This document shows positions 34,301 to 40,300 of a stretch of 64,000 bases of DNA, one piece after another. The stretch is taken from contig CAVVKJ010000014.1 in assembly GCA_963748815.1 (NCBI GenBank), forward strand, positions 64,001 to 128,000. Direction: 5' to 3'. Source of the DNA: an uncultured Gemmatimonadales bacterium (GTDB lineage Bacteria > Gemmatimonadota > Gemmatimonadetes > Gemmatimonadales > GWC2-71-9). A program made the position numbers. Position 1 is the first letter of the stretch; every line of letters begins with the position of its first letter.

Positions 34301-37300
34301 CCCGATGGCCGCCTCCCGTGGCGAGATGCCGTTTCTCGATCACCTCGAGGAGCTGCGTTCGCGCCTGATCAAGACGCTGGTCGCGGTCATCGTCGGGTTC
34401 GGGGCCGGCCTGTGGATCGTCCAGCGCTTTCAGTTCGTCTCCCTCCTCAAGGAACCGATCGCGCCCTACCTGATCGACGGCCGGCTCACCATCCTGAGCC
34501 CGACCGAACCGGTCATGATCGTGCTGAAGCTCTCCCTGTTGATCGGGCTGGTCCTCTCCTCGCCGTTTCTCCTCTATCAAGTCTGGGGATTCCTTTCCCC
34601 GGCGCTCTACGAGAAGGAACGCCGCGCCTTCGTCCCGGCCCTGATCGTGGGAACGCTGCTCTTCATCGTCGGCGCCGGTCTCGGCTACGTGTTCGTGGTG
34701 CCGCAGGCGCTCCGCGTCCTCTTCAGTTTCCAGACCGAGGCGCTCCAGCCGATGATCACGTACGACGCCTATTTCAGCTTCGTGCTGCAGATCCTCGTCG
34801 GACTGGGCCTGTCGTTCGAGATTCCGCTGGTCATCACCATCCTGGCGGGGTTCGGGCTCATCACGCCGGCGGCCCTCAACCGGTTCCGGCGCTTCGAGAT
34901 CGTCCTCGCCTTTGCCGCCGGGGCGCTGCTTTCGCCGGGCGCCGATGTGCTCTCGATGCTGATGATGACCTTCCCGATCCTGCTGCTGTACGAGGTCGGG
35001 GTGGCGGGGGCCATCGTGATGCACCGTCGCCGGCTCCGGCGTGCGGCGTCGGCCGCCGTCGCGGGGCTCGTCGCGCTCGCCATCTGGGGGACGCCGGCCC
35101 AGGCGCAGGACCCGCAAGTGCGCGACCGCCCCACGAAGCCGGTGCCGAAGCAGACGACGCCGGGTGCCCCCGGAGCACCCGGTGCCGCGCCGGCGACCCC
35201 CGACGACTCCCTCGCCCTCGCCAAGGTGCAGGGGGGCCAGGCGGTGGACACCGCCGCCGCGCGGCGCCTCGGCCTCCCGACGGCGCCCGTCTTTCCGTTC
35301 CCCGATCCCGACTCCACCATGCAGAGCCTCCTCCTGCGGCAGGGGTACGTGGTGACCCGGTATCGGGCCGACTCGGTGACGCTCTTCGCCCAGGACAAGC
35401 GAATCCTGATGACGGGAGAGGCGCGCACCGAGCGGGAGGGCGCGACGCTGGAGGCCGGCGAAATCGACTACCAGGACGCCAAGGGCCTGCTCGACGCCCG
35501 CGGGTCGCCGATGCTCTTCAGCGAGGGCAACATCCTGGTGGGCAAGGAGATCCGCTACTACACCGATTCAAAGAGGGGCGTCGTCACCGGCGCCCTCACG
35601 AGTTTTGATCAGGGGGGCACCGAGTGGTTTCTGCGCGGCAGCATCGCGCAGGACTCGAGTTCCCGCCGCATCTACGCCCAGTCGAGCGAAATCACCAGCT
35701 GCGACCTGCCCGACCCGCACTACCATTTCTCCGCCGGTGAGGTGAAGTGGATCAGCGGCACGGTGATGGTGGCCCGCCCGACCGTCCTCTACGTGCGGGA
35801 CGTGCCGGTCATGTGGCTGCCGTTCGTGTTCCAGGACGGCCGGCCCGACCGCCACTCGGGGATCCTGATTCCCCGGATCGGCATCAACGACGTGGTGCGG
35901 TCGTCGTCCACCTACAACCGCCAGATCACGAATCTCGGCTACTACTGGGCGACCAGCGACTATTTCGACCTGACCGCCCGGTTCGACTGGCTCGATAACC
36001 GGTATTCCACCCTGGCGGTCCTCGGGCGCTACCGGTGGCTCGACCGCTTCACCTCCGGCTCCATCGGGCTCAGCCGGCAGTGGGCCTCCGACGGTGGGCG
36101 CTCCACCGGCGTCATCTGGGATCACCACCAGATCTTCTCGCTCAACAGCTCCGTCAACCTGTCGCTGAACTACGTGACGAACAGCAGCATCGTCCGGAAC
36201 AACGCGATCGACCCGCTCCTGACCACCCAGCAGATCACGAGCGCGCTGAACTATACGCATCGCTACGGGTGGGGCACGCTGACCCTCGGCGGCAACCTCC
36301 GGCAGAACCTCGAGAACAACAGCCTCACCAGCCAGCTGCCGGCCATCACCCTGAGTCCCAAGCCGGTCAATATCGGCTCGCACGTGACCTGGTCGCCGGG
36401 GCTGTCGTTTGCCACTGAGTGGCAGCAAAAACAGCTGCTCGGCGCGCCGGACACCCTCGTCCTGGTCGGCGGTGTGGTCGACACCGTGCGCACCACCTTC
36501 AACGCGCGGGCCACCACCTTCAGCCTGGAAACGCCGTTTCGGGTCGGGAACTTCAACTGGCGGAACAGCATCCGCTTTACCGACGCCGAAGACACCAAGC
36601 GCACCACGAGGCGACAGTACGTGCCCGACCCGGATAATCCGGGGGATTCGGTGCTGGTGTCCACCACGTATGGGGGGACGTACACCTCCGGGCTCAATTG
36701 GGACACCGGCATCAACCTGCCGCTGCTCTTTCGCGGGTCGTGGAAGCTGCAGCCGTCGGTCGGGGTGACGAACGTGGTCGGGGGCCAGCCCTACCTGGTC
36801 CGCAACGAGACGACCAACGGGGAATGGGTGGCCCAGTCCAAGCGATTCGCGTTCAACATCTCCTCCAATCCCACCTTCTTTGGGTTCTACCCCGGGTTCG
36901 CCGGCTTCCAGCGCATCCGGCACAGTTTCTCGCCGGTCATTACCTACGCGATGGCGCCGTCCGCCGACATTCCGCTCGACTTCGCGGTGGCGACCGACTA
37001 CCGGAGGGCGGGCGCCATTTCGCTCACCAGCCCGCGCACCGAGCTGCTGGCGTTCGGGCTCAACCAGAACATCGAGGGCAAAAAGCTCAATCCCGGCGCG
37101 GACAGCGCCGGACAGGACGGGGGCAAGAAGCAGCGGGTGCTGAGCATCGCGACGAGCCCGATCGGCTACGATTTCGAGCAGGCCAAGGAGCCGGGCCGCA
37201 CCGGATGGATTACCCCGTCGCTCACCAATTCGTTCCAGAGTGATCTGCTCCCGGGGTTCAACCTGGCAATTACACACAGCCTCTGGGACGGCCCGGTTGG

Positions 37301-40300
37301 CTACGACAGCACGTCGTTCGATTTCGCGCTGCAGCAGGTAGGCCTCAGCTTCGCGGTCTCGTCCGCGACCTTCGCTCCGCTCCTGCGTCTGTTCGGATTG
37401 TCCGCCCCAGCCCCTGGCACCGCGGCCGACCCCGACATCCGCGGCTACGTGGCCGACTCCTACCGCCCGGTTCGACCGGGCCCCGAGGCGATCTACGGCA
37501 ACAATTTCGGTTCGACGCCCCTCGGGCGGGCCTTTCGCGCGAACGTCAGTTACACCTACCAGAAGCTCGATCGCGCCGGGATTGCGCAATCCAATATCGG
37601 GTTCAACACCACCTTCTCCCCGACGCCCCTCTGGGGACTCTCCTGGTCCACGCAGTACAACGTGACCGCCGGCACCTTCGAGTCGCAGATCATCCGGCTG
37701 GAGCGCGAGCTGCACGAGTGGCGGGCGGGGTTCAACTTCGTGCGGAACCCCAACGGCAACGTGACGCTCTACTTCTCGATCTCGCTGACCGACCTTCCCG
37801 AGATGAAGCTGGACTACAACCAGTAGCCGGACCGCTTGCAATCGTCCCCGTGAGCGGACATCTCCCCGCTCGTAGTATCGGCATAACCACTTGTCTTTAC
37901 GTCACTTGCGATACTCCTTTGCATGGCATGGACCGTGCTCTCTGGGGGGTGTCCCCTCTTCGAGGAATTCCGATGCGTTACGCCTGGGCCGGTGCGGCCA
38001 TTCTCACTCTCGCCGCCTGTGACTCCTATACCGAAGTCATCGCGCCGCCGGCGGGGATTCTCCCGCCCGCTGCGCTCTACTACGAAGTGGCCCCGGTCGG
38101 CACCGGGACGGCGCCATCGGGCCTCCTGCTCTCCTGGCCGGACGACGGCAATCCCAACCTCGCTGTCTGGCATGTGTATTCGCGTGGAGTCACGAACGAG
38201 CCGTTCTACCTGCGCGGGTCCACCACCTCCAACAGCTTTCACGACAACGGCCCCCCCGACCTCGAGTACTACGTGACCGCGGAGGACCTCGCCGGCTTCG
38301 AAAGCGTGCCGAGCCCCACCGTGACCATCGATGAACGTCTCGCGCTCCCGGCGCCGGCCACCCTGTTCAGCACCAGCCTCGACGGGGCCATTGCCCTGGC
38401 GTGGGCCGACAACGCGCACGCGGCCTCGCCGGCGCGGTTCGCGGCCTACCGGATCTACAGCGCGGCGTACAACCTCGATGCCAATCTCTGCGACGTCGAC
38501 TGGTACCTCGAGGGCACCACGGTGGCGCCCGAGTTCATCGCCGGTGCGTTGCCGAACGGGCAGCCGCGCTGCTTCGCCGTGACGGCGGTGAGCCGCGAGG
38601 GGTACGAGAGCCTCTGGTCGCCGATCCGCGCCGACACCCCGCGCCCCGACGCCCGGAACATCGTCCTCTTTGCAGCCGAAGCCTCCCTGGGCCAGAGCGG
38701 GTTCCGGTTCTGGAAGGACCTGAACAACGACTTCACGGTGCAGCCGAACGAGCTGGGACTCGTCGGTTCCGGCGCCGCCCCTGATATCGACTTCGTCGTC
38801 GAACGAAACGGCCCCTCGGCGCTGCGGCTGCGGCCGGTGCGCGCAGGGACCGGTGTCGAGTTCTACGGAAACACCGCCGTCGGCGACCTGACCGACATCG
38901 ACTGGGCGCCGGACCAGGCGTACAGCCCGCTGCCCATCGATGCGCGGGTCGGCTGGGGCTATGTCTTCGAGATGAGCGCCGCCGATCCCTACGCCCGCTA
39001 CGGGGCGCTCCGGATCACGCACGTCGGGCAGGACTTCCTGATCCTCGACTGGTCGTACCAGACCGATCCGGGGAACCCGGAGCTCGTGGTGGGTGGCGGG
39101 GTCCGCACCGCTCGCCCCAGCGGGGTGACGGTGCACCGATAGGCCGCACTTGTGTCGGCCGGGACGTTCGGGCAGTTTCGGTGGATGCCTACTGAAACCC
39201 TGCATCTCGACGGCCAGTCGCTCACAATTTCCGACGTGGTCCGCGCGGCACGCACTCCTGCGTGCCGCGTTGGCGTTCGCCCCGCGGCGCTGGCGGCCCT
39301 GGAGGCCAGTCGGGGCCGCGTGGAGCGCGCACTGGCGTCGGGCCAGACGATCTACGGGATCAACACCGGGTTCGGGAAGCTGGCCAACGTGCGGATCGCC
39401 CCCGGGGACCTCGACCGGTTGCAGGTCAACCTGATCCGCAGCCACGCCGCCGGCGTCGGCGCCCCCCTGGCGCCCGAGGTCGTCCGGGGCCTCATGATCC
39501 TGCGGGCCAACGTCCTGCTGCGGCCGACCAGCGGCGTGCGCCCGGCACTCGTCGAGGCGCTGATCGGCTTGCTCAACGCCGGCATCATCCCCGCCGTGCC
39601 GGAGCAGGGGAGCGTCGGGGCCAGCGGCGACCTCGCCCCGCTCAGCCACGTGGCGCTCGTCCTGATGGGCGAGGGCGAGGTGCTGCAGGCGGGGCGCCGG
39701 GTGCCGGCCGCGGCGGCGCTCGCAGAGGCCGGATTGGCCGCCCACCGGTTCGCGCCGAAGGAAGGGCTGGCCTTCATCAACGGCACGCAGGCGCAGACGG
39801 CGATGCTCGCGCTCCTGGTGCACGACGCCGAGGTGCTCTGGCGGAGCGCCGTGGGCGCAGCGGCGATGAGTCTCGAGGCGCTGCGGGGCACGCCGACGCC
39901 GCTCGACGAGCGCATCCACGCGGCGCGTCCGCACGCGGGACAGATCGAGGCGGCGCGGCTGATGCGCGAACTCCTTGCGGACAGCGCCATCCGGGACTCG
40001 CACCGCGACGACGACCCCCGCGTCCAGGACGCCTACAGCCTCCGGTGCACGCCCCAGGTGCTCGGCGCCGTCTGGGACGCCATCGCCTTCGCGGCGCACA
40101 CGGCGTCCATCGAGCTCAATGCCTCCACCGACAACCCACTGGTCTTCGAGAACGGCGACGTGCTTTCGGGGGGCAACTTCCACGGGCAACCGGTCGCGCA
40201 GGCCCTCGACTTCCTGGCGGTGGCGCTGACGACCCTGCAGGCAATCGCCGAGCGGCGGGTGGAGCGGCTCGTCAACCCTGACCTGTCGCAGGGCCTGCCG

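Follow-up and report, generated by a model that had tools for sequence, protein, structure and literature searches.

The window, a stretch of 64,000 nucleotides from an uncultured Gemmatimonadales bacterium (genome G000, 86% complete), contains one reading frame that joins TatC to an LptD-type outer-membrane protein, two machines between which we know of no physical link. This raises the question of whether the frame is genuine and, if so, whether the cell uses its product as one protein or as two. The joint resembles an export signal, so the most likely outcome is that the cell divides the chain, leaving two ordinary proteins; judging from the sequence of the joint, we consider it probable that the chain is inserted co-translationally by the Sec route and that signal peptidase I then frees LptD.

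Organization of the tatC-lptD locus

The fused frame and its surroundings comprise the following features:

29742..34285, + strand: upstream cluster of tolQ, tolR, TonB_2/tolA-like, tolB, pal and cpoB
34305..37826, + strand: fused tatC-lptD reading frame, 1173 aa, ATG start, stop-free
34305..35021, + strand: TatC, residues 1-239, six hydrophobic helices (Pfam, TIGR00945, hydropathy, PDB match)
35019..35021, + strand: in-frame ATG (M239), candidate internal start abutting the basic stretch, not conserved beyond the genus
35022..35042, + strand: basic stretch HRRRLRR (residues 240-246), TatC cytoplasmic tail as putative n-region
35043..35090, + strand: hydrophobic core (residues 247-262), putative h-region from the LptD signal peptide
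35091..35108, + strand: c-region and predicted signal peptidase I site A265-x-A267 / Q268, presumed cleavage
35106..35273, + strand: Pro-rich, low-confidence N-terminal stretch of the presumed mature LptD (residues 268-323)
35346..35618, + strand: LptA-like beta-jellyroll segment of LptD (residues 348-438; VIA-align to LptA 8gaj)
35925..37787, + strand: LptD-type beta-barrel region (about residues 541-1161; profile and structure comparison)
44354..44611, + strand: the genome's only TatA/B-family gene, on the strand of the fusion, 6.5 kb downstream

The initial annotation had described a single polypeptide of 1173 aa at 34305-37826, carrying the only TatC and the only LptD of the genome. Both descriptions hold: the frame lies on the plus strand, begins with ATG and has no internal stop, G000 has one TatC and one LptD_2 match, and tblastn of either half against the genome returns itself alone. 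The GC content of third codon positions stays at 0.82-0.98 throughout the frame, joint included. Contigs from three of four public sequencing runs cross the joint with the frame unchanged (X1, 33400-35165; X2, 34740-35546; X6, 34802-35338); two compensating one-base gaps in the X6 contig are located past the cleavage site. Homologues carry the source label Gemmatimonadales, and fused proteins are named as TatC alone in the database, so that LptD is hidden in these genomes.

Identity of the two halves

The TatC half matches Pfam PF00902 at residues 12-224 (E 1.2e-58; 198.8 bits, cut-off 25.1), TIGR00945 (193.2 bits, above the cut-off of 132.7) and TatC in the PDB (E 2e-60). The six transmembrane helices proposed earlier are recovered as hydropathy peaks that start near residues 21, 72, 114, 163, 199 and 220, and also in an AlphaFold2 model of residues 1-301 (pLDDT 82). 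The residues F96 and E105, which correspond to F94 and E103 of E. coli, the RR-binding residues of TatC according to PMC13673990, are intact in 84/84 fused and 60/60 unfused TatC rows. A TatA-family partner is available: there is one PF02416 match in G000, and PF02416 is present in all 61 family genomes compared. A connection between the fusion and loss of TatB was considered and rejected, since fused genomes occur both among the 47/61 with one TatA/B match and among the 14/61 with more. In TatC the chain normally stops on the cytoplasmic side behind helix 6; here the frame runs on for 930 codons, and TatC would keep 27 extra residues even after cleavage.

The LptD half matches Pfam LptD_2 at residues 489-958 (E 1.1e-30; 107.2 bits, cut-off 22.5). 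Its structural model, which has moderate confidence (pLDDT 64, pTM 0.47, whole-chain rmsd 13-22 Å), shows a predicted LptD-type fold, namely an LptA-like beta-jellyroll followed by a large beta-barrel. In a Foldseek search with this model ranks 1-25 were all LptD (best E 2.9e-19); VIA comparison with 4q35 gave Z 16.4, rmsd 14.4 and 498 aligned residues, and VIA-align of residues 348-438 with LptA 8gaj gave Z 12.0, rmsd 2.7 and 90 aligned residues. The cut-offs of the proteobacterial LptD equivalogs are missed (NF002997, 20.8 vs 683 bits; NF003358, 18.3 vs 944). E. coli LptD has two disulfide bonds, which are missing here, the entire fused chain containing one cysteine (C466). Insertion of LPS into the outer membrane is the putative function of this half. 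Among partners in this pathway, LpxC and LptF/G were found in G000, as was an LptE-like gene by tblastn (E 1e-40) that the Pfam profile PF04390 missed; a PF03968 query for LptA gave no match in the 86% complete genome.

Signal-like segment at the joint

Every part of a signal peptide is present at the joint: a basic n-region, an h-region, a helix breaker and small residues at -3/-1. However, the segment is internal (residues 240-267), with no conserved start codon ahead of it, and its parts differ in ancestry. The initial annotation had taken the whole joint for LptD's own Sec signal peptide, which stands for the hydrophobic core and the cleavage site but not for the basic stretch: at least three K/R occur at the same place in 83/83 fused and in 75/83 unfused TatC. 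The joint is thus a hybrid, in which the basic stretch is the ancestral cytoplasmic tail of TatC, while core and site derive from the LptD signal peptide. The hydrophobic helix of 15-20 residues proposed before is there as a stretch, the uncharged run having a median of 16 residues (range 11-25, 83 junctions), but its hydrophobicity falls short of that of a typical membrane helix: in G000 no Kyte-Doolittle window of 19 residues exceeds 1.6, and the core is shorter and less hydrophobic than TatC helix 6 (1.72 vs 1.98). P or G occupies positions -7 to -4 in 79 of the 83 junctions. In the AlphaFold2 model of residues 1-301, a hairpin was not obtained; helix 6 and the joint form one helix (215-261), a result that says nothing on topology or docking.

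The A-x-A/Q site noted in G000 recurs as a small-x-small/Q pattern after the core in every one of the 83 junctions, with A at -1 in 74. The pattern [AVLGSTIC]-x-[AGS]-Q, widened to allow L and I at -3, lies at most 19 residues past the hydrophobic window in 83/83 junctions against a mean of 21 and a maximum of 32 in 1000 shuffles, and its narrower first version in 54/83 (shuffles 17, maximum 29), contrasts that are overstated because the junction sample is non-random and its members are kin. After another TatC helix it was found in 0/83. The unpublished loci L014 and L030 were left out of all junction statistics and trees. Among unfused LptD, 63/80 have an N-terminal signal that closes with the same motif, and by heuristic gene and signal calling 44/113 signal-peptide-like N-termini of G000 have a Q directly behind A-x-A (background 7.4%); at the level of sequence, the site of the joint matches the ordinary signal peptides of this genome. 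Q268 is invariant in 50/50 homologues, the surrounding linker being variable. Such a conserved site could be a relic; yet it is still there at 45-50% identity, where the linker has diverged. The linker from TatC helix 6 to the LptD core measures 69-121 residues, and a similar Pro-rich stretch follows the Q in unfused LptD. Signal peptidase I is encoded in G000; a PF05096-type glutaminyl cyclase gave no match in this 86% complete genome.

Distribution and origin of the fusion

The fusion had been called the usual state of the family, and the enlarged comparison bears this out: 157 of 200 genomes are fused, G000 not counted, about half of them on the basis of one stop-free match over the joint and the remainder by translation. 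In four more the junction is spanned but the contig cut, and two have an intact junction and are broken elsewhere. Clearly non-fused are 23/200, comprising 17 with split, adjacent genes and six with LptD alone at the locus; one is probably split, four could be assigned to neither state, and nine are without match. Leaving out the unpublished genomes (G187, G198, G068 and G134, fused; G014, assigned to neither state) gives 153/195. Long homologues number 1026 among 8000 scored, and in an atlas search that covered other phyla unsystematically, Gemmatimonadota account for more of the clusters containing both domains than any other group.

The expectation of two adjacent genes outside the family holds for 57 of the 60 loci fetched and fails for three fused genomes (G278, G273 and G345). 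Other families have open frames 1200-1390 codons long that resemble further fusions, but these were discarded, as 57/60 loci are split and the length reflects GC-rich off-frame read-back. In 25 of the 57 adjacent separate tatC/lptD pairs outside the family the two genes overlap by ATGA/GTGA, and the fusion is derived from adjacent, mostly overlapping neighbours. Within the family it was split again about ten times, and outside the family there were three further origins. On the LptD tree (141 tips; duplicates, 23/35 f6/f7 loci and short matches left out) unfused family members nest within fused clades, and parsimony requires 13 changes, vs 34 with fusions only; family monophyly on this tree is weakly supported (0.39). 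The joint of G345 has the same compact form, evolved independently; the single cases G278 and G273 could be assembly or sequencing errors. The tblastn comparison of the loci used the rows for tatC, cpoB, pal and tolB. In six genomes of three genera tatC is missing between cpoB and lptD; their LptD retains core and site, and TatC is encoded elsewhere and belongs to a separate clade (support 0.997). G086 has the fusion plus a free TatC of the separate clade. The repeated splitting and the separate origins indicate that the halves need no covalent link.

Proposed processing of the fused chain

Following established Sec biology, the six helices of TatC would be inserted co-translationally, its basic tail would remain cytoplasmic and serve as the n-region, and the following 16 residues would enter the membrane N-in/C-out, in the manner of an internal signal peptide, and set off the export of the remaining 906 residues. 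Signal peptidase I would cut behind A267; LptD, beginning at Q268, would pass to BAM and LptE, and TatC would remain an inner-membrane protein that carries the 27-residue remnant as a seventh helix unless this is trimmed. The fusion would convert translational coupling to synthesis in a strict 1:1 ratio, and its effect is probably nearly neutral. This polyprotein reading, put forward in the initial annotation, is consistent with every test run, cleavage being predicted from the motif.

An internal start for LptD was an earlier caveat. In this reading most LptD would be initiated in frame at the joint, at M239 in the case of G000, read-through from TatC being incidental. The ATG at 35019 directly ahead of the basic stretch would yield a textbook 29-residue signal peptide, and some ATG/GTG/TTG falls in the start zone of 47/83 junctions. 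However, ATG occurs in 6/83, five of these in the genus of G000, 36/83 have none of the three codons, and GTG makes up 51/100 Val codons in the zone vs 1034/2023 in the remaining TatC, which is no enrichment; TatC lacks a stop in any case, so the extension needs handling regardless. With no conserved start among the 83 junctions, we regard this origin as unlikely. A Shine-Dalgarno scan is powerless in this lineage (5/82 even at TatC's own start), thus an additional internal start may exist in the genus of G000. Still less probable is a chain that stays uncut or is cut slowly, in which TatC, the seventh helix and the linker would tether the LptD barrel as a covalent trans-envelope bridge. Retention of the fusion across most of the family, the location behind the tol-pal genes and the length of the linker are in its favour, but the cleavage motif is universal among the junctions, the core is weaker than helix 6, unfused LptD has a similar linker after its signal, and there were about ten re-splittings. 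A seventh TatC helix is unusual and its tolerance by TatC presumed, which would fit a cut by a different protease, whether rhomboid, RseP-like or cytoplasmic, or later removal of the signal remnant from TatC; this is very improbable given that the residues at -3/-1 and the Q at +1 agree with the ordinary signal peptides of G000, and a second trimming step is compatible with release by signal peptidase I.

The arginines could also be read as a twin-arginine motif through which Sec would pass LptD on to the Tat system, perhaps to the TatC of the same chain, as in dual Sec-Tat membrane proteins. RR precedes the core in 73/83 junctions and F96 and E105 are intact, but RR is absent in 10/83, the consensus R-R-x-[FLVIMG]-[LIVMF] occurs in 0/83, and the same arginines are found in unfused TatC tails. 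Outer-membrane barrels, moreover, are exported unfolded. The release mechanism of dual Sec-Tat proteins needs C-terminal positive charges, according to PMC5449189; these are missing here, no K/R following the core in 53/83 junctions and at most one in 82/83 (counted in the c-region as far as the Q). We give this route scarcely any credence. Loss of the tatC stop through an assembly or sequencing artefact is least credible of all: the loci of two neighbours, G050 and G119, have one break each at another point of the gene, and G199 has one in TatC, so errors do occur in these genomes, but the many fused genomes, the long homologues and the contigs of three runs over the joint refute an artefact for the family. 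There is, finally, a small chance that the cut is incomplete or regulated, the product partly persisting as a covalent trans-envelope chain, or that the fusion helps to deliver, during translation, the essential barrel that folds most slowly, linking the Tat and LPS insertion sites.

To our knowledge, polyproteins processed by signal peptidase are rare in bacteria. If signal peptidase I does make the cut, a large family of environmental bacteria has, in most of its members, a polyprotein that unites a translocase of the inner membrane with a barrel of the outer membrane. This polyprotein would provide natural tests of delivery of an outer-membrane protein co-translationally behind a polytopic protein, of signal peptidase I cutting a signal 240 residues into the chain, and of TatC working with a seventh helix. 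The repeated fusions and fissions would illustrate the route from two overlapping genes to a polyprotein, a positive-inside tail being reused as an n-region.

Comparison with known systems

A precedent is FbcH of Bradyrhizobium japonicum, the cytochrome b-c1 precursor, in which a single gene likewise encodes a polytopic protein of the inner membrane and another, exported protein, with a signal-like segment between the two. Its cleavage after synthesis has reportedly been shown, whereas that of TatC-LptD is predicted from sequence. The products of FbcH are subunits of one inner-membrane complex; TatC and LptD belong to unrelated machines in two membranes, and the second product is a BAM-dependent barrel. 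As tatC can disappear from the locus, a paralogue at another place then providing TatC, the one-complex organization of FbcH does not apply.

The haloarchaeal TatCt (14 helices) and TatCx (10 helices) are natural extended or fused TatC (PMC13673990) and share extra C-terminal helices with TatC-LptD, but they are uncleaved Tat components; the accessible text of that paper mentions neither LptD, Gemmatimonad nor polyprotein. Dual Sec-Tat membrane proteins resemble TatC-LptD in that arginines stand directly ahead of the final segment of a polytopic protein, that this segment is weakly hydrophobic, and that a large domain behind it is exported; TatC-LptD differs in lacking the Tat consensus, the basic patch and a cofactor domain, and in having a cleavage site rather than an anchor. 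The +1 glutamine of G000 is similar to the Q-rule of Bacteroidetes, in which glutamine is enriched at +1 of signal peptidase I substrates (PMC5837995, whose accessible text does not mention Gemmatimonadota). The accessible parts of the literature searched contained no description of a TatC-LptD fusion, and supplementary domain-fusion tables could name one.

The closest counterparts are the separate tatC and lptD (LptD_2) genes of other Gemmatimonadota, which have the same order after cpoB, the same proteins, the same basic TatC tail, and the same core and small-x-small/Q at the start of LptD. They keep a stop and a new start (as ATGA/GTGA in the overlapping pairs), whereas in the fusion both of these and the n-region of LptD are gone.

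The tatC-lptD locus

The genes tatC and lptD of the uncultured Gemmatimonadales bacterium (GCA_963748815.1) are joined in a fusion that is real and conserved. The frame and the other relevant features of the window are as follows.

34305-37826, + strand: fused tatC-lptD, one open frame of 1173 codons
37718-39142, + strand: long ORF without Pfam match, between lptD and tatA
44354-44611: the only TatA/B-family gene of the genome
44682-46436, + strand: long ORF without Pfam match, beyond tatA
23032-26205: 1057-aa frame with N-terminal UvrB-type domains and a TsaD-like segment at residues 849-966

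As the initial annotation had stated, this uninterrupted frame carries both the TatC (residues 12-224) and LptD_2 (residues 489-958) Pfam domains and encodes the only TatC and the only LptD, no second TatC or LptD_2 match being present in this 86% complete genome. The frame exceeds the TIGR00945 tatC cut-off and follows tolQ, tolR, a TonB_2 protein gene, tolB, pal, and cpoB. Third-position GC is high throughout the joint (residues 240-268), which single contigs from three of four public runs cross in frame. A single TatA/B-family gene also occurs in 47 of 61 genomes of the family GWC2-71-9, and a putative minimal TatAC system in a diderm is suggested. The 23032-26205 frame is possibly a second fusion or an overlapping-frame artefact.

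Distribution of the fusion

A junction-spanning query was run on 200 family genomes, and its outcome was resolved further. The fusion proved to be the usual state in the family, as had been proposed: 157 genomes are fused, four span the joint in a gene cut by a contig end, and two have an intact joint with a break elsewhere in the gene. The two genes are split and adjacent in 17 genomes and probably split in one; LptD stands alone at the locus in six, the state could not be assigned in four, and nine gave no match. Without unpublished genomes (four fused, one unassigned) the count is 153 of 195, and the conclusions are unaffected. Three fused loci (L043, L056, and L057, from G199, G050, and G119, respectively) each carry one frameshift or stop that lies outside the joint; these are probably assembly errors.

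The claim that the genes are separate and adjacent outside the family holds for most loci: among 60 fetched from 112 matching genomes, 57 are split and adjacent, with an ATGA/GTGA overlap in 25, whereas two are fused (G278, G273) and one is cut. A phylum-wide TatC search found long frames in two of 65 non-family genomes (one of the 65 unpublished), G278 and G345, the latter being the third fusion outside the family; its congeners G343 and G212 are split, with a GTGA overlap. A protein search yielded 1026 long homologues among 8000 scored; all 120 listed contain TatC and 119 also LptD_2, and those bearing names are named TatC only.

State of the two halves

Both halves look intact. The TatC half has six hydrophobic segments, matches solved TatC structures (E 2e-60), and retains F96 and E105 in 84 of 84 fused rows; these are equivalents of F94 and E103, which the available text of PMC13673990 gives as the RR-binding residues. 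A structure model of the C-terminal 906 residues (moderate confidence, pLDDT 64) retrieved only LptD at Foldseek ranks 1-25 (best E 2.9e-19) and aligned with LptD in VIA-align (Z 16.4, rmsd 14.4, 498 aligned), with an LptA-like jellyroll at residues 348-438 (Z 12.0, rmsd 2.7, 90 aligned). The LptD half is a divergent LptD, since it scores far under proteobacterial LptD cut-offs and has one cysteine. LpxC, LptF/G, an LptE-like gene, TatA, and signal peptidase I are also encoded in the genome.

Evolutionary history

In a gene tree built with FastTree from the N-terminal region of LptD (141 tips; root at family f4), unfused family members are nested within fused clades, with seven adjacent re-splittings and three tatC deletions; parsimony requires 13 changes versus 34 with fusions only. 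The family has weak support as a single clade (0.39), and there may thus have been either one basal fusion or two.

There are six genomes, belonging to three genera, in which lptD directly follows cpoB with core and predicted cleavage site intact, and TatC, absent there, is encoded elsewhere and belongs to a separate clade (support 0.997), which argues that the two halves can work without a covalent link. G086 has both the fusion and a free TatC of that clade. The free-TatC clade, located away from the tol-pal locus (L187 and L190-L195, from G086, G012, G007, G136, G076, G132, and G175), goes with loss of the tatC half in three genera; a second free TatC also occurs in G124, G168, and G278.

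Two genera have unusual apparent lptD starts. In the re-split genus g44 (L073, L172, L174, L177) all four genomes share the only plausible start, a GTG in the -1 frame that lies 25 bases ahead of the tatC stop; programmed frameshifting is conceivable there. In genus g92 of family f7 (L131-L133, L141-L144) no ATG, GTG, or TTG precedes the LptD signal peptide near the tatC stop, and the apparent start is a CTG overlapping that stop (CTGA).

Composition of the joint

In the source genome the joint consists of HRRRLRR (residues 240-246), 16 uncharged residues, T-P, and A-Q-A|Q. We compared 83 published fused junctions; the set is not random but combines top hits with selected distant or ambiguous junctions. 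The median uncharged run is 16 residues, and P or G occupies -7 to -4 in 79 junctions. A small-x-small|Q site follows the core in all 83, versus 21 in shuffles, and follows another TatC helix in none; this pattern was widened after a narrower version gave 54 versus 17.

The initial annotation took the joint for LptD's own signal peptide, which is right for the predicted cleavage site, closing the N-terminal signal in 63 of 80 unfused LptD, but not for the basic stretch. The latter lies at equal distance from helix 6 in fused and unfused TatC, with at least three K/R in 83/83 and 75/83, respectively, and is TatC's positive-inside tail. The fusion deleted the TatC stop together with the LptD start and n-region, whose role the TatC tail took over. 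The same compact arrangement arose independently in G345, and several other fusions retain longer relics of the tail.

By heuristic, genome-wide signal calling in the source genome, 44 of the 113 N-termini that resemble signal peptides have Q at +1 after A-x-A (background 7.4%). Since this Q occurs in ordinary N-termini and the same site in unfused LptD, the predicted site at the joint follows the host's normal cleavage dialect. The Q at +1 resembles the Q-rule for signal peptidase I substrates in Bacteroidetes (PMC5837995, whose available text does not mention Gemmatimonadota) and suggests, at the sequence level, a similar rule in Gemmatimonadota. A PF05096-type cyclase was not found in this 86% complete genome.

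Proposed maturation and alternatives

By analogy with established pathways, the precursor is probably inserted by Sec, with LptD exported from the joint and cut off by signal peptidase I. It would be targeted as a polytopic membrane protein, Sec would insert TatC helices 1-6, and insertion of the joint N-in/C-out would begin LptD export. Cleavage after A267 would release LptD to the usual BAM/LptE route and leave TatC with a 27-residue remnant. The expected hairpin is absent from a structure model of residues 1-301.

Production of LptD from an internal start is feasible in the source genome itself, with an ATG at 35019, but very unlikely, as ATG occurs in just six of 83 junctions, 36 lack any candidate start codon, and GTG is not enriched at the joint. 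An uncut trans-envelope tether from TatC to LptD is even less probable given the predicted cleavage site and the re-splittings. Scarcely credible is a hand-over of LptD to Tat: no junction of the 83 has the Tat consensus, and the positive charges C-terminal of the hydrophobic segment, which belong to the mechanism in the available text of PMC5449189, are largely missing at the joint.

Comparison with known systems

In its available text, a 2026 review of Tat evolution (PMC13673990) gives only haloarchaeal TatC fusions or extensions and never names LptD. We found no description of a TatC-LptD fusion in the literature searched, most subscription papers and all supplements being outside its scope; the TatC and LptD_2 pair is visible in automatic protein clustering. 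In Bradyrhizobium, FbcH is a cytochrome b-c1 precursor whose signal is internal. The TatC-LptD fusion would work alike, as a precursor with an internal signal and a predicted cleavage, but differs in uniting unrelated machines of two membranes. It is a new example of a rare, already known kind of arrangement.
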